The notes under the pieces were generated by a model. That model had not been told where the DNA came from, ran no database searches, and worked only from the letters and a program-made list of their open reading frames with translations. A program made the translations under genes and the position numbers. From the IMG/VR virus record IMGVR_UViG_2602041909_000007: a DNA stretch of 36,618 nucleotides; one strand, 5' to 3'. Numbering within the stretch: the first letter of the stretch is position 1; the number at the start of each line of letters is the position of its first letter. Shown here piece after piece: positions 21,575-36,618 of this stretch. Origin of the DNA: a virus (Duplodnaviria; Heunggongvirae; Uroviricota; Caudoviricetes).

Positions 21575-23362
21575 ATGGCGTATTCTGATGAGGTGATTGC
21601 TGCTGCAAAATCGCTCTATCTGAAAAGGCACACACCAAAAGAAATACAAAAGAAACTCGGACTGAACAGCCCGCGAATTGTTTATTACTGGGCGACAAAG
21701 TTTGAGTGGTACACGCAGCTCAATACGGAAGGTGTGGAGGATGTTATCGCCCGGCGTCTCGCTGTACTGGCGGAGCGTGACCATAAAACGCCGGAAGAAC
21801 ACGATGAACTCGACCGCCTGATTGGTCATCACGTCAAACTAATGTCGGTCAGAAACAAGCACACGGAACGAATGGCTGAGATTGCGCGAATGGGAGTGGA
21901 CATCCCCCAGCCGGGCCGTTATGGAAAAGAAGAACGCGGAGAAAAAGGTGCAGGTAAGAAAGAGCGTCCCCGCAAAACTAATGACGTTTCCGGACTGACT
22001 GCTGAAAGTTTTGAGCCGTTTACGAAGAAGTTGTTTGCTTATCAGTTGCGCCTGCGTGAAAACAAATTCCGCCGTGTACGCAACCTGCTTAAATCCCGTC
22101 AGATTGGGGCGACGTATTACTTCGCGTTTGAGGCGTTTGAAGATGCGGTATTAACCGGCGACACACAGATATTTTTATCGGCATCAAAACGTCAGGCCGA
22201 AGTGTTCCGTACTTATATTGTAAAAATTGCACAAACAGAGTTTGGCATTCCCATTAAAGGCAATCCGGTTAAGTTAAGTAATTTGGCTGAACTGTATTTT
22301 CTGGCGACCAACAGCAACACGGCACAGTCAAACAGCGGCCACCTGTACATTGACGAATACCTGTGGATCCCCGGTTTTCGCCGTCTCAATGAAGTGGCGT
22401 CAGGGATGGCCACCCATAAACACTGGCGCATTACCTATTTCTCCACGCCGTCATCCAAAACACACCAGGGTTATCCGTTCTGGTCTGGCGATGAATGGCG
22501 CAAAGGTGATCCGAAACGAAAAGGGGTTGAGTTTCCGTCCTTTGATGAACTGCGTGATGGCGGGCGCGAATGCCCGGACGGTCAGTGGCGCTATGTGGTT
22601 ACGCTGGAAGATGCCATTGCCGGCGGCTTTAACCTTGCTGACATCAACGAGCTGCGCGAGCGATACAACGAAACAGCGTTCAATATGCTGTTTATGTGTG
22701 TGTTTGTGGATGACAAAGAGAGCGTCTTTAAATTCGATGACCTCGTGCGCTGTGGCGTTGATGTCAGTACGTGGGAGGATTTTCACCCGGAAGAACCCAT
22801 GCCATTTGGTAACCGTGAGGTGTGGGGTGGCTTTGACCCTGCGCGCTCCGGCGATAACGCCACGTTTGTGGTGCTGGCACCGCCGCTGGTTTCGGCAGAA
22901 CGATTCCGCGTGCTGGAAAAACACCACTGGCGCAGTATGTCATTCCAGTTTATGGCAGAGCGTATCCGCAGCATTAAGGCGCGCTATAACATGACATTTA
23001 TCGGCATTGACGTCACCGGTCTTGGCTACGGTGTCTTTGAGCTGGTTCAGGGATTTGCCCGCCGTGAAACAGTGGCCATTCATTACAGCGTTGAATCCAA
23101 AAACCGCCTGGTGATGAAGATGCTGGATCTGATTTACGCCAACCGTATTGAGTGGGATGAAGAAGCCACAGATATTCCGGCATCGTTCCTGGCCATTCGT
23201 CAGGAGTCCACTAACAGTGGCAATAAAGTCACTTTCACCGCCGAACGTAGCGAAAAAACCGGGCACGCAGACATCTTCTTTGCCATAGCTCATGCCGCAA
23301 GTAATGAACCCCTGAACTATAAGCACAAGCGCAAATCAACATGGATCCTGTCAGATGAGTAA
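21575..23362 (+). CDS. P: Terminase large (ATPase) subunit (P2 gpP-like, 595 aa)
   Basis: Size matches P2 gpP (590 aa); divergent from O; followed by portal with overlapping stop/start. Confidence 0.9.
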   Translation: MAYSDEVIAAAKSLYLKRHTPKEIQKKLGLNSPRIVYYWATKFEWYTQLNTEGVEDVIARRLAVLAERDHKTPEEHDELDRLIGHHVKLMSVRNKHTERMAEIARMGVDIPQPGRYGKEERGEKGAGKKERPRKTNDVSGLTAESFEPFTKKLFAYQLRLRENKFRRVRNLLKSRQIGATYYFAFEAFEDAVLTGDTQIFLSASKRQAEVFRTYIVKIAQTEFGIPIKGNPVKLSNLAELYFLATNSNTAQSNSGHLYIDEYLWIPGFRRLNEVASGMATHKHWRITYFSTPSSKTHQGYPFWSGDEWRKGDPKRKGVEFPSFDELRDGGRECPDGQWRYVVTLEDAIAGGFNLADINELRERYNETAFNMLFMCVFVDDKESVFKFDDLVRCGVDVSTWEDFHPEEPMPFGNREVWGGFDPARSGDNATFVVLAPPLVSAERFRVLEKHHWRSMSFQFMAERIRSIKARYNMTFIGIDVTGLGYGVFELVQGFARRETVAIHYSVESKNRLVMKMLDLIYANRIEWDEEATDIPASFLAIRQESTNSGNKVTFTAERSEKTGHADIFFAIAHAASNEPLNYKHKRKSTWILSDE

Positions 23363-24389
23363 AAAGAAAAAATCCCCCGTGCTACACGATGGCGTGGCAA
23401 AAAAAACAGCCAGCAAAATGACGTTTATTGAATTTGGTGACCCGGAACCAGTCGCTGCATGGGGCTGTTATTACGGCTCGCTCTGGGATGGCTATAACGG
23501 CTGGTACACGCCGCCCATTGAGCGCATGGATCTCGCTATGTTGGCCAATATCGCACCGTATCACGGCGCGGTATTGCGTGCGCGCGTCAATATGATCATG
23601 CAGGGTTTTCGGGGGGGCGGTGGTATGACACACGCCGCCATGGCGGCAGCGGTGACCAATCTGCTGATATTCGGGGATATGGGTCTGCTTAAAGTGCGCA
23701 ATGGCTTCGGTCTGGTAGTGCGCCTGCACACACTGCCGTCGCTGTACCTGCGGCGTAACAACGAGGGTGGCACGGTGATTGTGCAGGCGGCACTGGAAGA
23801 TCTCGTTTACCCGCCAGGCGAAGTGGTGTTCGTGGCCATTTATGACCCGCAACAGCAGGTTTACGGTGTACCGGATTATATTCACGGGATGGAATCCGCC
23901 ATGCTGAATGTGGATGCCACCCGCTTTCGCCGCAAGTATTACAAGAACGGCGCACATCTTGGTTATATCCTGTATTCCACTGACCCGGACATGGATCCCG
24001 AGCTCGAGGCGGAATTCCGTAAAAAGATAGAGGCGTCAAAAGGGGCGGGCAATTTTAAATCCATGTTTATCAATATACCGGGCGGAGACAAAGAAGGCGT
24101 TAAGGTGATCCCTATCGGGGATTCAGGTACAAAAGATGAGTTCCTGAATATAAAAACCATCAGTGCCCAGGATCAGCTCGTCGCGCACCGTTTCCCACCC
24201 GGACTTGCCGGCATCATTCCCGCAAATACGGCCGGGCTTGGTGACCCACTGAAATCCCGCGAGGCATATTACAGGGATGAGGTTATCCCGATGCGCCGCC
24301 TGATTATGGAGGGGATCAACAGCGACCCGGATATCAGACGACTGGGGGAGGTGAAATTTATTCTTGATTTTGATGAACCCATGGAGTGA
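23355..24389 (+). CDS. Q: Portal vertex protein (P2 gpQ-like, 344 aa)
   Basis: Exactly the length of P2 gpQ (344 aa); P-then-Q transcription order as in P2. Confidence 0.9.
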   Translation: MSKKKKSPVLHDGVAKKTASKMTFIEFGDPEPVAAWGCYYGSLWDGYNGWYTPPIERMDLAMLANIAPYHGAVLRARVNMIMQGFRGGGGMTHAAMAAAVTNLLIFGDMGLLKVRNGFGLVVRLHTLPSLYLRRNNEGGTVIVQAALEDLVYPPGEVVFVAIYDPQQQVYGVPDYIHGMESAMLNVDATRFRRKYYKNGAHLGYILYSTDPDMDPELEAEFRKKIEASKGAGNFKSMFINIPGGDKEGVKVIPIGDSGTKDEFLNIKTISAQDQLVAHRFPPGLAGIIPANTAGLGDPLKSREAYYRDEVIPMRRLIMEGINSDPDIRRLGEVKFILDFDEPME

Positions 24390-24454
24390 TGTGCGGTATG
24401 GGGAAAGAGCGGGTAAAATCGGTGGCAGTAAAACGCTGTTCCGGGAGGTGGAAA

Positions 24455-24712
24455 ATGCGCAGACAGAAAGCGCGATGTCATTGCTGCGGTGCACATGCAG
24501 TGATTGAGAAAACAGCCTGGAAAACCGATCAGTTTGCTGATGTGTATTACCGTTGCACCCGTCTCGAGTGCGGACATACCTGGGTGATGAATCTGACCTA
24601 CTCGCACACACTGGTGCCCAGCGGGCTGGAGAATGGTGTGTTAAAGCTGTTGATTGAGCGGATGCGTCCGGAAGAAAAACAAATGGCTCTGGAGTTGTTG
24701 CAGGCCGGATAG
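24455..24712 (+). CDS. ogr: Ogr/Delta-family zinc-finger late-gene transcription activator (85 aa)
   Basis: Start at ATG 24455 with GGAGG SD; CHCCGAH…(22 aa)…CTRLECGH matches C-x2-C…C-x4-C zinc finger of P2 Ogr (CPLCQHAAH…CQNVNCSATF). Confidence 0.7.
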   Translation: MRRQKARCHCCGAHAVIEKTAWKTDQFADVYYRCTRLECGHTWVMNLTYSHTLVPSGLENGVLKLLIERMRPEEKQMALELLQAG

Positions 24713-24732
24713 CTGACGCGCTTCGCTTGTCC

Positions 24733-24785
24733 AACCCGGAACGGGCGCACAAAGAATTTGCGCACCCGTTCCGGGTTTTCTTATT
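24733..24785 (+). terminator. Strong rho-independent terminator after ogr
   Basis: Long imperfect palindrome CCCGGAACGGGCGC-acaaagaatt-TGCGCACCCGTTCCGGG followed by TTTTCTTATT. Confidence 0.7.
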
Positions 24786-25140
24786 CAATGGCAGACAACT
24801 GATAATTTGTGTCTTCCTGCAGGCTGGTTAAAGAAATATTATCCAGTGCAGCCAGAATAACGTGCTGTGTATATAATCCGGAACATTTCATTGCCCGGAC
24901 AATATCACCAACACTGTAATTTTCTTTTGTCGGGATATATCCACCACCCGGGCCGCGTGTGGCTTTTACCAGGCTACTTTCCCGTAAATATCTGAATATT
25001 TGCTCCAGATATGACAGTGAAACGGTTTCTTTGCTTAATTGCCGGAGTGAGATTGGCTTTCCGGTGTACTGTTTCACAAATTTAATCATTACCATAACTG
25101 CAACTGATGCACGCTGGCTTCCGGAATTATCTTTCATCAT
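24781..25140 (-). CDS. Rrf2-family transcriptional regulator (120 aa)
   Basis: [29 protein letters not shown] closely matches Rrf2/IscR wHTH signature ([29 protein letters not shown]); start set at ATGATG 25140 with SD; no Cys cluster. Confidence 0.8.
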   Translation of the reverse strand: [119 protein letters not shown]

Positions 25141-25151
25141 GATTACTTCCA

Positions 25152-25439
25152 TTAATGGCATAAATTGATGGGGCGGGTCAGTGAATAAAGAGGCAATACA
25201 TTCCATCCCTTAGAGCGCCAGCTGTCTGCAACATCTTTACTTCTTGTTATCGCCGGTATTCCAATAGGATTATTTGCGTGCATCCATGCCACTGGCTCTG
25301 CTTCCAGTGATGCAAGTGCGATTTCCAGTGCGATTAACATATTGTGATCGTCTTCATCAAGACCGAACGGGATGTCTTCGCGCCACGATTTAAACTCTGT
25401 GATTTTACGTTGTAACCATTCTTTGGTAATGGTGGACAT
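25152..25439 (-). CDS. Hypothetical protein (95 aa)
   Basis: ORF with AGGAG SD before ATG at 25439; Trp-rich C-terminal region; no confident family. Confidence 0.45.
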   Translation of the reverse strand: MSTITKEWLQRKITEFKSWREDIPFGLDEDDHNMLIALEIALASLEAEPVAWMHANNPIGIPAITRSKDVADSWRSKGWNVLPLYSLTRPINLCH

Positions 25440-25453
25440 AGTTACTCCTGTTT

Positions 25454-25768
25454 TCACTTCGGGAAAAACGCCTGAATATTCTTTTTCACCTGCTGCATAT
25501 GGGGGGCGCTGTCTGCTGCTGGTTGCGCCGGTTTTTCAGGCTGTACTGGTAGCGGTGGCATCCGTATTTCGTCTTCTGACCATTCTGCCAGCGAATACGC
25601 CAACGCGGGGGTGCGTTTTATAAGAGCCAGTCCAGCCAGAAAAGCCGCGCGTTGTGCGCGGCTGCGTTCGGAGGCTGGCAGGCTGTCGAGGTAACTGCAC
25701 GCCTCCCGTTCGCTCTTGACGACGGCGGGCTTCAGATAGAAACTTATCCGTCTGGTTGGTGTCGTCAT
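25454..25768 (-). CDS. parR: ParR-like centromere-binding adaptor (104 aa)
   Basis: Immediately downstream of parM homolog; LDSLPASERSRAQRAAFLAGLAL resembles R1 ParR (LDSIPQGERSRLNRAALTAGLAL); start at ATG 25768 with AGGAG SD. Confidence 0.7.
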   Translation of the reverse strand: MTTPTRRISFYLKPAVVKSEREACSYLDSLPASERSRAQRAAFLAGLALIKRTPALAYSLAEWSEDEIRMPPLPVQPEKPAQPAADSAPHMQQVKKNIQAFFPK

Positions 25769-25772
25769 TGAT

Positions 25773-26732
25773 TTACTCCTTGTCCATTGCGTACAGCCCA
25801 TTAACCAGAGCAAACTGTGGCACCCCGTCCGCGATGAAAGTCGCATTAACTCCGCAGGCTTCGCGGATAGCGGGTGCCACAATCTCCGCTCCTCCACCTA
25901 CAACCATCACCCGCCCGTAACCCGAAAAAACCGCCAGCGCGCGGATCACGCGTTGTTTCAGTGTTTCCTCCTTTTCACGAATAACTGCCATCAGGCTGGC
26001 GTAATGCGCGTCATTGTGGATGTGCTGGCGCAGCCAGGCTTCATCGTGGCGATGTTCGATAATGGTATTGGCGATGTGGTGACTGGTGCGCATACCGTTG
26101 GTGGCCATCACCGACAGCACGGCATCGGCCATCAGAGAAACGCCTACGTGTGGATCGCAAAACACCTGGCTGATACCTGCCAGTTGCCCCTGAACCTTTG
26201 CCACATCCAGCGTGGTTCCGCCCAAATCCACAATCAGCAGGGATTCAAACGGACTCATGTCAGCCAGTGCCTTAAAACCAGCCGGAATGGATTCAGGCAT
26301 AACCCGCACGTTACGGATAGTGAATGCCTCGCCGTTCTGGTACTCCACCGGGCGCATAACGTTCGCTTTTTTGCGGTTGATGTTGGCCATGTCCGGCTGT
26401 GCGTTTGTGTCGAAATACTCGCTCAGTGGCAGGGTAACAACCACATCCACTTCCTGTGGTGTGATGCCTGATTTGACCAGCGCGTGGTGAATGGCGATTA
26501 CATTCACATCGCTGTACTGGTATTGCGTGTCGGTCGTCTGGACAAAGCGATCGCTGACCGGATCAAAACCATAGCGCACGCCATCAAGCATGTAGTTCGC
26601 GGGCTGCGTGCCACCGAACGGCGCAGACCATTCCGACTTGAAGCTGTTCGGGCTGATGGCGTTGCGGCGTTCGCCGTTCTCAGTCCATGCCAGCTTGATG
26701 TTGGTGGAGCCGTCGTCGATACAAATTTTCAT
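25773..26732 (-). CDS. parM: ParM/StbA-family actin-like segregation ATPase (319 aa)
   Basis: Near-colinear similarity to plasmid R1 ParM as recalled: IDDGSTNIKL, ISPNSFK, YSDVNV.A.HHAL, VMPESIPAG, DLGGTTLD, GGGAE, LVNG.Y. Confidence 0.9.
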   Translation of the reverse strand: MKICIDDGSTNIKLAWTENGERRNAISPNSFKSEWSAPFGGTQPANYMLDGVRYGFDPVSDRFVQTTDTQYQYSDVNVIAIHHALVKSGITPQEVDVVVTLPLSEYFDTNAQPDMANINRKKANVMRPVEYQNGEAFTIRNVRVMPESIPAGFKALADMSPFESLLIVDLGGTTLDVAKVQGQLAGISQVFCDPHVGVSLMADAVLSVMATNGMRTSHHIANTIIEHRHDEAWLRQHIHNDAHYASLMAVIREKEETLKQRVIRALAVFSGYGRVMVVGGGAEIVAPAIREACGVNATFIADGVPQFALVNGLYAMDKE

Positions 26733-26763
26733 GTCGCTTTTCCTTATGTTGATTAATTAATCG

Positions 26764-26876
26764 TTTACGGGATTTTTAAATCCCGTTTTCGCCTGTTTTG
26801 TGCGCGCTTCATATATCGCGGCGCGTTTTTTGCTCATTTACGGGATTTGTGAATCCCGTTTCTGTCTGTTTTTTGT
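26764..26876. repeat. Two ~38-bp direct repeats each containing palindrome ACGGGATTT(n)AAATCCCGT; candidate parC-like centromere / ParR binding sites
   Basis: tttacgggatttttaaatcccgtttt (26764-26789) and tttacgggatttgtgaatcccgtttc (26838-26863); first copy is intergenic upstream of parM, second lies in the last ~20 codons of the gpA-like ORF. Confidence 0.4.
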
Positions 26877-29637: not shown

Positions 29638-30003
29638 TTACTGCGTCATACCGTTCAGGGTGTCACGGCAAACGGCAGCCAGCCGCTGAATTTCCAGCAC
29701 GGTGTCTTCTGTGTCGGCATGGCGATGTGTGATGCGGATGCTGTCGGCAATCACATCGACGATTGCAGAGGATGGGCGCTGGTAAATGCCAATAACGGAC
29801 GGAGTGCCACCTTCAATGCGGTAAAGCCTGTAATTTCCCTCGTGGCTGTCAATCATGTAGCGACCATCAATAACAATCTTTCCGTCAGCGAGCTGCGGTA
29901 CAGGCAGGGATTTCAAGTACATGTCATAACGTTCACGCACGCGAACGGCAAGATCACGCTCTGTGTTGAGCAGGTATTCAAGAAAGTCGTTGGCGAGAAT
30001 CAT
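29638..30003 (-). CDS. Hypothetical early protein (121 aa)
   Basis: ORF immediately upstream of gpA-like gene in same operon. Confidence 0.45.
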   Translation of the reverse strand: MILANDFLEYLLNTERDLAVRVRERYDMYLKSLPVPQLADGKIVIDGRYMIDSHEGNYRLYRIEGGTPSVIGIYQRPSSAIVDVIADSIRITHRHADTEDTVLEIQRLAAVCRDTLNGMTQ

Positions 30004-34582: not shown

Positions 34583-35110
34583 TTATGATAAATCGCTCTC
34601 GTGATCTCTGCGTTTTTCCAGTTTTGAACTTCTACCCATATAAACCCGTTTTCCGTTAACGGTCTGGCAATCTTCTTTGTCGACTGGTGCGAACTTTCTT
34701 TTCTGGCGGTCATACGTCCAGTAACTTTTCCAGTTGTGCCATTCCGGGGGTTCGCACTCTGGTAGCTCATCAGCCAACTTGTCCCACTCTTTGGCGTTAA
34801 ACCACCATACGCCGTCTGAGTTTTCATCTTCCGGGTTTGTGCGCGTCTTGTGTCCCGGCATTTGACCGCGATGAATGGCTACGCGCAGTGCAGATTTTGT
34901 TAGCCCAATATATGCCGCGCCTTTTTCCAGAGAGCAAAGCCCGGCGATCGGACCATCCAGCCGCAAAGTCGCTCCTTTTTTGTAGGAACGCTTTTTCTTG
35001 TTTTCTTCGTGCTCGTCGTCGTTGGCGGCATCAATGGATCCGCTGAGTGCGTCACTTTCCTGAAGTGGTTGGTGGTCAGATAACTCTTTATCGGCAATGA
35101 AGTCCCGCAT
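34583..35110 (-). CDS. Cox/Apl-like excisionase-regulator with acidic N-terminal extension (175 aa)
   Basis: Divergent from repressor gene; HTH segment LEKGAAYIGLTKSALRVAIHRGQMP and GVWWFNAKEWDKL resemble P2 Cox (…KSTGAVRRMIDKGKLP…EYWVYLPAWNNGL); start codon uncertain. Confidence 0.45.
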   Translation of the reverse strand: MRDFIADKELSDHQPLQESDALSGSIDAANDDEHEENKKKRSYKKGATLRLDGPIAGLCSLEKGAAYIGLTKSALRVAIHRGQMPGHKTRTNPEDENSDGVWWFNAKEWDKLADELPECEPPEWHNWKSYWTYDRQKRKFAPVDKEDCQTVNGKRVYMGRSSKLEKRRDHESDLS

Positions 35111-35169
35111 TTGTTATCCTCTTGCGTTGGTGCGCTTGTCGCGCCTTGTGATGGTTTGTTTTGGCTTGT

Positions 35170-35226
35170 AAAGATAACCAAAAGGTTATCTTTGTGCGAG
35201 AGGTTAATACTCAAATGGTTATCTTG
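35170..35226. promoter_or_regulatory. Candidate repressor operator: perfect 10-bp inverted repeat plus third direct half-site at repressor start codon
   Basis: AAAGATAACC-aaaa-GGTTATCTTT at 35170-35193; GGTTATCTTG at 35217-35226 overlapping ATG of C-like gene; located in divergent cox/C intergenic region. Confidence 0.5.
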
Positions 35227-35556
35227 TCAATAGACTACGCAAAAAAGTTACGTCAGATACGTAAGGCGGAAGGGTTAACACAAAAGCAGTTTGCGGATAT
35301 TACTGGGTTGTCTTTGGCAACCATAAGGAATTACGAATCGGGGCAAAAGAACGCTAGAGCAAAAATCGTTGAGGCGGTTCTGCAAGTCGATCGCTTTGAA
35401 AAATACATGCTGTGGCTAATAAAAGATAAGACGCTACCTGTCGCCGGGCAGATTGCTCCGGCTCTCTCTCTTGATGGATCTATTCAGTCGGAGGGCGATC
35501 AGGTTTCAATCGGTATTACCCAAAAATCACCCCGATCAGGCCGCAATGTTGGCTGA
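35215..35556 (+). CDS. C: Immunity repressor, P2 C-type HTH (XRE-like) (113 aa)
   Basis: HTH LTQKQFADITGLSLATIRNYESGQ; C-terminal KYMLWLIKDKTLPVAGQIAPALS resembles P2 C (KYTLWFMTNQIAPESGQIAPALA) as recalled; start set at ATG 35215. Confidence 0.75.
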   Translation: MVILSIDYAKKLRQIRKAEGLTQKQFADITGLSLATIRNYESGQKNARAKIVEAVLQVDRFEKYMLWLIKDKTLPVAGQIAPALSLDGSIQSEGDQVSIGITQKSPRSGRNVG

Positions 35557-35625
35557 CTCTACACATTGAGCGAATTACATATCGCAAGGAGTGTTTAGTT
35601 AATTTATCCGTTGGAGGGGCTAATC

Positions 35626-36618
35626 ATGTCGATTAAGCAACTCAAAGACGGACGTTATCAGGTCGATGTCAGACCGCAGGGGGCGGAAGGAAAGCGGATT
35701 CGAAAAATCTTTGCCCTGAAATCAAAGGCTCAGGAGTTTGAGAAGTATGTGTTACAGAACTTTCATGACAAGCCATGGCAGGCTAAGCCAGCTGATCAGC
35801 GGCGATTATCAGAGCTGCTTGATGCGTGGTGGATGCTTGATGGGCGTAATCAGGCTTACGGGGATAGCTACAGGGTTAGGCTAGGGAAGGTTGTTCGTGA
35901 AATGGGAGATCCTCGCGCCAGTCAGATGACGCGAAAATTTATGCTTGAATATCGGTCAGAGAAATTACAGGCCGGATTAATGCCGTCCAGTATTAATCGT
36001 GACTTATGCGTACTGTCTACCATGTTCACGGTGCTGATTGAAGCTGAGGTCTTTCACAACGCGAACCCTGTACGCGGTATACGAAAACTGAAAGTTCAGA
36101 ACACAGAGATGGCCTTTCTTTCTGATGATGAGATTGAACGGCTTCTTGAGCGACTGGAGGGTGATGCGCGTCGTGTTGCCATTCTGTGTCTTTCTACTGG
36201 TGCCCGATGGAGTGAAGCATCGGAACTACGTGGAGAGCATATCGTTGGCAACCGGGTGACGTTCTTTAACACCAAAAACGGAAAATCCCGTTCGGTTCCT
36301 GTGGCGGATTCGGTCGTGCCTCTGATTAAAACCCGTCGAACGGGGTTATTGTATCAGGTTGATTATCTGAAGTTCCGGGAGATTCTTCAGGAGGTGAAAC
36401 CGGATTTGCCGAAGGGGCAGGCTACGCATGTCATGCGTCATACATTTGCCACACACTTTATGATGAATGGCGGAAATATTGTTACGTTGCAACGAATCCT
36501 GGGGCACGCAACGATTCAGCAAACAATGACGTACGCTCATTTTTCGCCGGACTTTTTACTGGACGCGATCAACTTTAATCCGCTGGCTGAAAGTGTCCAT
36601 AAACTGTCCATCGATTAG
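35626..36618 (+). CDS. int: Tyrosine integrase, P2 Int family (330 aa)
   Basis: MSIKQLKDGRYQVDVRP… and catalytic region ATHVMRHTFATHFMMNGGNIVTLQRILGHATIQQTMTYAHF closely resemble P2 Int (MAIKKLDDGRYEVDIRP…LRHSFATHFMINGGSIITLQRILGHTRIEQTMVYAHF); ATG 35626 preceded by GGAGGGG SD. Confidence 0.9.
   Translation: MSIKQLKDGRYQVDVRPQGAEGKRIRKIFALKSKAQEFEKYVLQNFHDKPWQAKPADQRRLSELLDAWWMLDGRNQAYGDSYRVRLGKVVREMGDPRASQMTRKFMLEYRSEKLQAGLMPSSINRDLCVLSTMFTVLIEAEVFHNANPVRGIRKLKVQNTEMAFLSDDEIERLLERLEGDARRVAILCLSTGARWSEASELRGEHIVGNRVTFFNTKNGKSRSVPVADSVVPLIKTRRTGLLYQVDYLKFREILQEVKPDLPKGQATHVMRHTFATHFMMNGGNIVTLQRILGHATIQQTMTYAHFSPDFLLDAINFNPLAESVHKLSID

Follow-up and report, generated by a model that had tools for sequence, protein, structure and literature searches.

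A conserved R1-type parM–parR gene pair accompanies the replication gene of P88-like prophages

Results

An R1-type parM–parR pair downstream of gpA

We analyzed a stretch of 36,618 nucleotides of viral DNA (Caudoviricetes; IMG/VR record IMGVR_UViG_2602041909_000007), hereafter the window, and focused on two genes on its minus strand that lie next to the gene for a gpA-type replication endonuclease. They encode an actin-like ATPase, ParM, and a predicted centromere-binding adaptor, ParR, the two proteins of a type II (ParMRC-like) partition system. The three genes are as follows.

25773..26732, minus strand: parM, actin-like segregation ATPase of 319 residues with two Pfam ParM domains
25454..25768, minus strand: parR, predicted ribbon-helix-helix centromere-binding adaptor of 104 residues, allele class A, family PF10784
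26809..29631, minus strand: gpA-type replication endonuclease of 940 residues (Pfam PF05840, 1.9e-129), upstream of parM

ParM matches both Pfam domains of its family, StbA_N (PF06406; 1.8e-82, residues 1-157) and the ParM C-terminal domain (PF21523; 6.3e-69, residues 159-316). It is aligned with R1 ParM (PDB 1mwk) by phmmer over residues 2-316 (8.3e-93) and is 47% identical to an R1-type ParM over 318 residues by BLASTP. The motifs that bind nucleotide are kept, namely the phosphate-1 loop IDDGSTN (the D6/D7-G-S-T loop of R1), IVDLGGTTLD (R1 D170) and VGGGAE, as is the catalytic Glu (R1 E148) within VMPESIPAG, and all four motifs are invariant among nine ParMs of the prophage clade described below. 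The protein is 99.7% identical to gp17 of phage P88, and among P88-like phages ParM is 95.6-99.7% identical, with 93-97% identity at the DNA level. The gene is under strong purifying selection, with a median ratio of nonsynonymous to synonymous substitution rates (dN/dS) of 0.067 (Nei-Gojobori, 45 pairs), and is present at its full 319 residues in 78 of 78 IMG/VR loci. In PHROGs, the families of both ParM and ParR are listed as "partition protein."

The ATG of parR lies 4 nt past the stop codon of parM, directly downstream of it. Around parR, a mechanical list gives an open reading frame (ORF) of 147 residues, which is spurious and results from a GTG further upstream; RefSeq has the equivalent of 25454-25768 in an identical E. 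coli locus. In ParR, a DNA-binding domain at the N terminus is joined through a hypervariable linker to a C-terminal tail that is conserved, VKKNIQAFFPK. The DNA-binding domain matches Plasmid_stab_B (PF10784; 1.9e-24, residues 6-70). A profile built from 12 ParR sequences matches ParR/StbB of pB171 (PDB 2jd3) over its whole length (5.7e-18), and the single window sequence gives a weak match to the same structure (E = 0.009). The motif YLDSLPASERSRAQRAAFLAGLAL lines up with TLDSIPQGERSRLNRAALTAGLAL in R1 ParR, and the β-strand regions are alike (RRISFYLKP in the window, RTIAFKLNP in R1). The tail aligns with ...TKKNAMKLIN of R1 ParR, which is the ParM-binding end of that protein, and its Asn is nearly invariant (at least 90% of sequences). 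A motif (K/R)(K/Q)N-x3-(L/F)(F/I)P, predicted to bind ParM, is common to R1, all prophage ParRs and both allele classes described next, and takes the form (K/A)(K/G)NI(Q/R)x(F/L)FP in P88-like loci. On all these points the first-pass annotation of this DNA, which had seen the letters and their ORFs, is borne out: its coordinates for both genes are exact, the 319-residue protein is an R1-type ParM that retains the conserved actin-fold ATPase residues on alignment with R1, the gene behind it is a ParR, and the pair lies between the gpA gene and those for packaging in a P2-like prophage that has an integrase.

Beside a nearly invariant ParM, ParR is highly polymorphic, with 41 distinct sequences in 78 IMG/VR loci, in 76 of which it is intact. 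Its N-terminal part falls into two deep allele classes, A (the class of the window, 20 loci) and B (the class of P88, 55 loci), between which synonymous divergence (dS) reaches 0.65-0.78, versus about 0.12 in parM, and the window ParR is 53% identical to that of P88. The linker is hypervariable, with at least five types. One genome carries both an A and a B copy, and another carries two identical B copies. A break in the megablast matches inside parR, which might have been taken for the recombination boundary of the cargo slot, was rejected as such because it corresponds to the two allele classes and the hypervariable linker.

The pair is backbone rather than cargo

In P2, the corresponding region is the variable tin/old slot, and the first-pass annotation had suggested, as one of two possibilities, that parM and parR are plasmid-derived cargo in its equivalent. 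Our results contradict this. In 5426 complete E. coli genomes, parM (at least 80% coverage) is found in 1279 and this type of gpA in 1321; parMR accompanies about 97% of the genomes with this gpA type and is present in about 24% of all the complete genomes. By megablast, parM, the 5' part of parR and gpA are conserved together as a single block in P88 and further Xuanwuvirus records. In a survey of the flanks, made on 80 IMG/VR loci with 1200 nt taken on each side, 75 of 77 flanks upstream of parM were of a single sequence type, versus 25 types among 67 flanks downstream of parR. The G+C content is 0.58 in gpA, 0.55 in parM and 0.57 in parR, and falls to 0.44 and 0.42 in the next two genes, with which the variable region begins.

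24781..25453, minus strand: start of the hypervariable cargo slot, with an ORF of 101 residues and an Rrf2-family regulator (Rrf2, 3.9e-13); outside the par module, whose boundary it forms

The cargo stretch to the left of parR is found together with parMR in only 37 of the 5426 E. coli genomes. By position, the hypervariable slot is the counterpart of P2 tin/old, and parMR is its fixed edge, not part of its interchangeable content. The window's cargo type occurs in 6 of 66 IMG/VR loci, and its 101-residue ORF corresponds to PHROG 660/60, to which no function is assigned there. A reading of the region as a defence system was rejected, PADLOC having returned no match for ParM, ParR or three neighbouring genes, the 101-residue ORF and the Rrf2-family regulator included.

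The relatives of ParM point in the same direction. In the plasmid collection, a ParM at least 99% identical occurs in six records. One of these is a circular phage genome and the others are prophage copies; below them, the best plasmid ParM reaches only 53% identity. Prophages of Hafnia, Plesiomonas, Serratia and Enterobacter have ParMs 54-62% identical to that of the window and the same order of genes, gpA-parM-parR (PF10784)-variable genes-portal/terminase; the pair thus has the same position in related P2-like prophages, where the first-pass annotation had proposed to look for it. Across these genera, ParM (54-62%) is better conserved than gpA (29-55%). Relatives of ParM at 49-53% identity stand in the context of plasmids or of integrative and conjugative elements (ICEs), and in a neighbor-joining tree of 108 ParMs a prophage clade of 16 tips has no member from a plasmid or ICE context. 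A scan of contigs with the window ParM gave only two near-identical loci, and the divergent relatives were found through the protein database. The ParM on one contig labelled Vagococcus sp. (NZ_JBQPOM010000071.1) has 98% identity with that of the E. coli phage, and the contig is probably contamination or a mislabelled assembly.

Taken together, the co-occurrence with gpA, the invariant upstream flank, the backbone G+C content, the distance of plasmid ParMs and the kept synteny identify parMR as part of the phage backbone. The window phage is a mosaic that allows this to be specified further: compared with P88, its early/replication region is 98-99.7% identical (98% for gpA), whereas identity drops to 30% for its portal and 36% for its terminase. 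Since the early region is P88-like and the portal and terminase are divergent, parMR follows the replication module and not the virion module.

A candidate centromere and the signals for expression

The region between gpA and parM is 76 bp long. In it and in the adjoining end of gpA lie two copies of a palindrome that we regard as candidate binding sites for ParR.

26767..26786, either strand: palindrome 2, ACGGGATTTAAAAATCCCGT as read on the sense strand of parM; intergenic between gpA and parM, at -54 to -35 relative to the start codon of parM; candidate operator or centromere site for ParR
26840..26859, either strand: palindrome 1, ACGGGATTCACAAATCCCGT as read on the sense strand of parM; within the final codons of gpA and 73 bp further upstream than palindrome 2; also a candidate site for ParR

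The 20-bp palindrome, ACGGGATT-N4-AATCCCGT, has these two copies in the 36.6-kb window and is found nowhere else in it (0.11 expected). The copies sit in a 42-nt direct repeat (26834-26875 versus 26761-26802) that is 83% identical. Both are kept in P88-like loci, the intergenic palindrome 2 more strictly than palindrome 1, and the prophages of Hafnia, Plesiomonas, Serratia and Enterobacter have two GGGA...CCC-type repeats at the equivalent place upstream of parM. In sequence, the half-site AAATCCC is similar to the AAAACCC-type iterons in parC of R1, as read from an R1-type plasmid, and the A-tracts over the palindrome region are phased at about 10.5 bp, the observed power being reached in 1 of 1000 shuffles. 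These features suggest that ParR may bind the palindromes. Two other candidates were rejected. Allele-specific centromeres were discarded because in P88-like loci the palindromes do not vary with the parR allele. An R1-like iteron array was likewise discarded, since tandem- and direct-repeat searches upstream of parM yielded neither such an array nor a further cluster of half-sites, only the two palindromes and the 42-nt repeat that flanks them.

In a consensus scan of the minus strand, nothing resembling a terminator was detected between gpA and parM, nor did the stretch ahead of parM yield a consensus sigma-70 promoter; inspection of its -35 and -10 regions by hand was equally unconvincing. 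With no terminator and no consensus promoter of its own in that interval, parMR is probably co-transcribed with gpA as part of the early operon, that is, while the phage DNA is extrachromosomal. A perfect palindrome of 12 bp, GATTAATTAATC, lies at 26751-26762, -30 to -19 from the parM ATG. Its core, ATTAATCAA, is also found upstream of parM in Hafnia and Plesiomonas prophages, and it could be a weak -10 region or the site of another protein.

Prophage context and location in host genomes

That the window is an integrated P2-like prophage is evident from the host gene serS at one end and from a Cox-like gene, a helix-turn-helix (HTH) repressor-like gene and a tyrosine integrase gene at the other.

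1-1293: host gene serS, at the start of the window
34583-35110: Cox-like gene
35161-35556: HTH repressor-like gene
35611-36618: tyrosine integrase, at the end of the window

Downstream of parR follow, in this order, the 101-residue ORF, the Rrf2-family regulator, an Ogr/Delta zinc-finger gene and, on the opposite strand, portal and terminase genes. The Ogr/Delta gene (24386-24777 region) lies between the portal gene and the cargo slot, as it does in the Hafnia and Plesiomonas prophages. Behind it, an inverted repeat with 21-nt arms (24733-24777) resembles a terminator that would serve, in both directions, this gene and the convergent gene for the Rrf2-family regulator. The portal and terminase of the window (21575-24389) are closest, at 75%, to those of a Plesiomonas prophage. 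An E. coli locus with a 100% match has tail genes annotated as DUF2586 and DUF2590, which are not of the P2 type. The par region has a 100% identical twin in an E. coli genome that adjoins pdxB, while the window copy adjoins serS, and the two diverge from about position 30000 onward, in the early/immunity region. Identical blocks of par and cargo genes therefore occur in prophages with different integration modules.

In the complete E. coli genomes, the module occupies 1441 chromosomal places versus 2 on plasmids, which makes a stable plasmid prophage unlikely as the normal condition. A probe for the attP junction of one integrase type found no intact junction in these genomes, although a junction at the start of a circular record would escape it. 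One record deposited as an E. coli plasmid, NZ_CP148288.1, is a circular, complete P88-like genome of 34,461 bp with genes for integrase, Cox, gpA, ParM and ParR, a Hok/Gef gene and a methyltransferase gene; spontaneous induction, with replicative DNA as its product, could explain this record equally well. The remaining "plasmid" hits are pieces of prophages in very large replicons or in replicons rearranged by insertion sequences (ISs). Two of these were considered as episomes and rejected: a Shigella "plasmid" of 26.7 kb is linear and consists of a prophage fragment riddled with IS1, and the hit in an IncC plasmid is a prophage piece bounded by IS26. The latter (NZ_MK439959.1, pC-Ec2-KPC) is a conjugative KPC plasmid in which a rearranged P88-like prophage has gpA-parM-parR between IS26 copies. 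In assemblies, then, the extrachromosomal maintenance of the prophage that defines a phage-plasmid is not seen, although a transient episome could escape them.

Discussion

A partition system is commonly taken to mark a plasmid. Here, an R1-type pair is part of the backbone of an integrating phage lineage present in about one-quarter of sequenced E. coli chromosomes. One practical consequence is that detection tools for plasmids or phage-plasmids that score partition genes will flag P88-like prophages, and P88 itself was flagged in this way. The presence of the module was already known, since it is annotated in P88, is named by NCBI in more than 1000 genomes, and the partition genes of P88 have been flagged in print. 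What has apparently not been described before is the deep synteny, the two-palindrome site and the dimorphism of parR. In our literature search, ParM in P2-like phages was touched upon by a single sentence (PMC7969092), and no functional study was found.

We cautiously favor the view that parMR is a functional type II DNA-moving module, is firmly built into the replication module with gpA in P88-like (Xuanwuvirus-type) temperate phages, acts on the transient extrachromosomal genome and confers a benefit in its segregation or distribution. The filament action, expression timing and biological benefit that we infer would fit together as follows. Dimers of ParR would bind the two 20-bp palindromes through the N-terminal ribbon-helix-helix domain, and the conserved C-terminal tail would capture the ends of filaments of ATP-bound ParM, whose growth between two ParR-bound phage circles would drive the circles apart; this part of the proposal is drawn from the homology with R1. 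The substrate would be the circular phage genome in its transient extrachromosomal states, i.e., after infection and before integration, and again once the prophage has been derepressed, excised and replicated through gpA. The products of P2 replication are monomeric double-stranded circles, plasmid-like molecules that serve as the substrate for packaging. Carried (probably) on the early cox-B-A transcript, parMR would be made only in these states. The benefit could lie in spreading copies through the cell and to both daughters, with better lysogenisation and less abortive loss, and/or in more efficient replication.

Several points weigh against this view. The candidate centromere consists of only two palindromes (four half-sites), while R1 has ten 11-bp iterons; palindrome 1 lies inside a coding sequence and is imperfect in P88 itself, and the two-palindrome site might be an operator only. 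The presumed timing of expression is deduced from the absence of consensus signals only. The bootstrap value of the prophage ParM clade is only 51 of 100, and the paper that described P88 makes no mention of partition. Finally, about one-fifth of the members of the database clusters are truncated ParM variants (clusters P0006, P0010 and P0017, with 261, 229 and 188 residues and 414, 649 and 555 members, respectively, some of them on megabase contigs), which suggests that parM is inactivated in a minority of resident prophages and that its loss is tolerated in some of them.

A bolder form of the same idea, which we consider possible although doubtful, is that a large and old branch of integrating P2-like phages depends on an actin-like cytoskeleton of its own, in which a stripped-down, two-palindrome ParMRC, integral to the gpA replication module, actively spreads monomeric circles and is required for lysogenisation and/or for a facultative carrier or episomal state. 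If true, this would be a natural type II system with a minimal centromere and an enterobacterial counterpart of the AlpAC system of the Corynebacterium prophage CGP3. In any case, the two palindromes offer a very small natural candidate centromere with which to probe the minimal DNA need of ParR and ParM.

Of the alternatives, the one that survives best, although we think it rather unlikely, is that the module organises lytic replication in the manner of AlpAC. ParR and ParM would tether replicating circles, or move them, to a site favorable for gpA replication and packaging, and inheritance by daughter cells would be irrelevant. Such a role would suit the tight linkage to gpA and the probable co-transcription with it, a minimal cis site would be enough for tethering, and AlpAC provides a precedent in an integrated prophage (PMC4446434, PMC5539076). 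However, the two proteins are near ParM and ParR of segregating plasmids (47% and 34% identical to those of R1, respectively), for which the demonstrated activity is bipolar pushing, and apart from the P88-like group and D6, the phages recorded in the phage database, P2 and 186 among them, replicate without ParM. The organiser and the segregation module that we favor overlap, and they are inseparable by sequence alone.

It is improbable, in our estimation, that these phages lead a true dual life, persisting for many generations as low-copy plasmid prophages by means of gpA and ParMRC as an alternative to integration. The balance of 1441 chromosomal to 2 plasmid places speaks against it, as do the lack of an intact attP junction for the integrase type probed and the nature of the other plasmid hits, which are prophage pieces in very large or IS-rearranged replicons. 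Moreover, the window copy has the host gene serS at its flank and an integrase of its own, and gpA of P2 is known as a rolling-circle initiator, not as a copy-controlled plasmid replicon. The evidence in favor includes the circular 34.4-kb "plasmid" record, a complete P88-like genome with integrase, although this single case could be replicative DNA of a spontaneously induced phage. There are also relatives that do live in this way, namely the phage-plasmid D6, which has a related ParM (47.8% identity), and the P2-like plasmid prophage KS14, which uses ParA (PMC3091744), and a screen for phage-plasmids that included P88 suggested both episomal and integrative states (Pfeifer et al. 2021, PMC7969092).

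A function in trans in the lysogen seems very improbable. Here, ParR alone or with ParM would act as a regulator or would interfere with the partition of incoming related phages or plasmids, causing incompatibility or exclusion. The module does adjoin a P2-type hotspot that usually holds exclusion genes expressed by lysogens, and the polymorphism of parR (two deep classes) recalls the diversification driven by conflict. Nevertheless, parM is nearly invariant and the presence of parMR is not variable, the palindromes are identical for both parR alleles, no consensus promoter of its own was detected and PADLOC found no match. Cross-talk with common plasmids is also unlikely, given an identity to R1 ParR of only 34%. 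The last alternative, that the phage acquired the module lately as plasmid cargo, or that it is in decay and does nothing for the phage, might be suggested by a position matching P2 orf91/tin/old and by database annotations as a plasmid protein. It is already contradicted by our results (nearest plasmid ParM at 53%, dN/dS of about 0.07, backbone G+C, presence with about 97% of this gpA type and synteny over five genera) and can be dismissed.

Comparison with known systems highlights both similarities and differences. With R1 ParMRC, the window shares the gene order parC-parM-parR, with the candidate site in the place of parC, and a ParR in which an N-terminal ribbon-helix-helix domain is combined with a C-terminal KKN-x3-hydrophobic tail, although the two ParRs are only 34% identical. 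The cis sites differ in design: parC of R1 consists of direct 11-bp iterons arranged as a block of five on each side of the promoter, whereas the window has two 20-bp palindromes 73 bp apart, one of them within gpA. So do the replicons, R1 being a low-copy theta plasmid and the window an integrating phage of the rolling-circle type. The ParR of pB171 par2 (StbB, 2jd3) is the only solved structure matched by our ParR family profile, and the centromeres of pB171 are arrays of many short repeats.

The closest system is that of Xuanwuvirus P88, in which gp17 and gp18, annotated as "plasmid segregation protein ParM" and "partition protein," are the same pair in the same place downstream of the same gpA. 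P88 shares with the window ParM (99.7%), gpA (98%) and both palindromes, and was flagged as bearing partition genes by Pfeifer et al. 2021 (PMC7969092). The window differs from it in having the other class of parR (53%), other cargo after parR and an unrelated structural/packaging module. D6, a P1-like plasmid prophage with a partition system of the StbA/ParM type, has a ParM 47.8% identical to that of the window together with a ParR, and its annotators remarked that the protein is "similar to phage P88 StbA." KS14 is P2-like and lives as a plasmid with ParA and a RepB-type initiator (PMC3091744). Unlike the window element, which is chromosomal and has an integrase, both D6 and KS14 are kept as plasmids.

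Two systems of integrating elements are the nearest in logic. In SXT/R391, the actin-type locus srpMRC is kept in an integrating element, stabilises its excised circular form and is expressed only with the functions for excision and transfer (PMC4489591), which is the same logic as that proposed here for the window module. However, SrpM is distant from R1 ParM, SrpR has no homology to ParR and the element is conjugative and not a phage. AlpAC of CGP3 belongs to a distant actin-like family in a Gram-positive host, with a gene order and an adaptor unrelated to those of ParR systems. Like the window module, it is nevertheless the pairing of an actin-like filament protein with a DNA-binding adaptor in an integrated prophage; its adaptor binds sites upstream of its own operon, and the system, which is induced early and needed for efficient replication of the phage DNA, links the circular phage DNA to actin-like filaments (PMC4446434).

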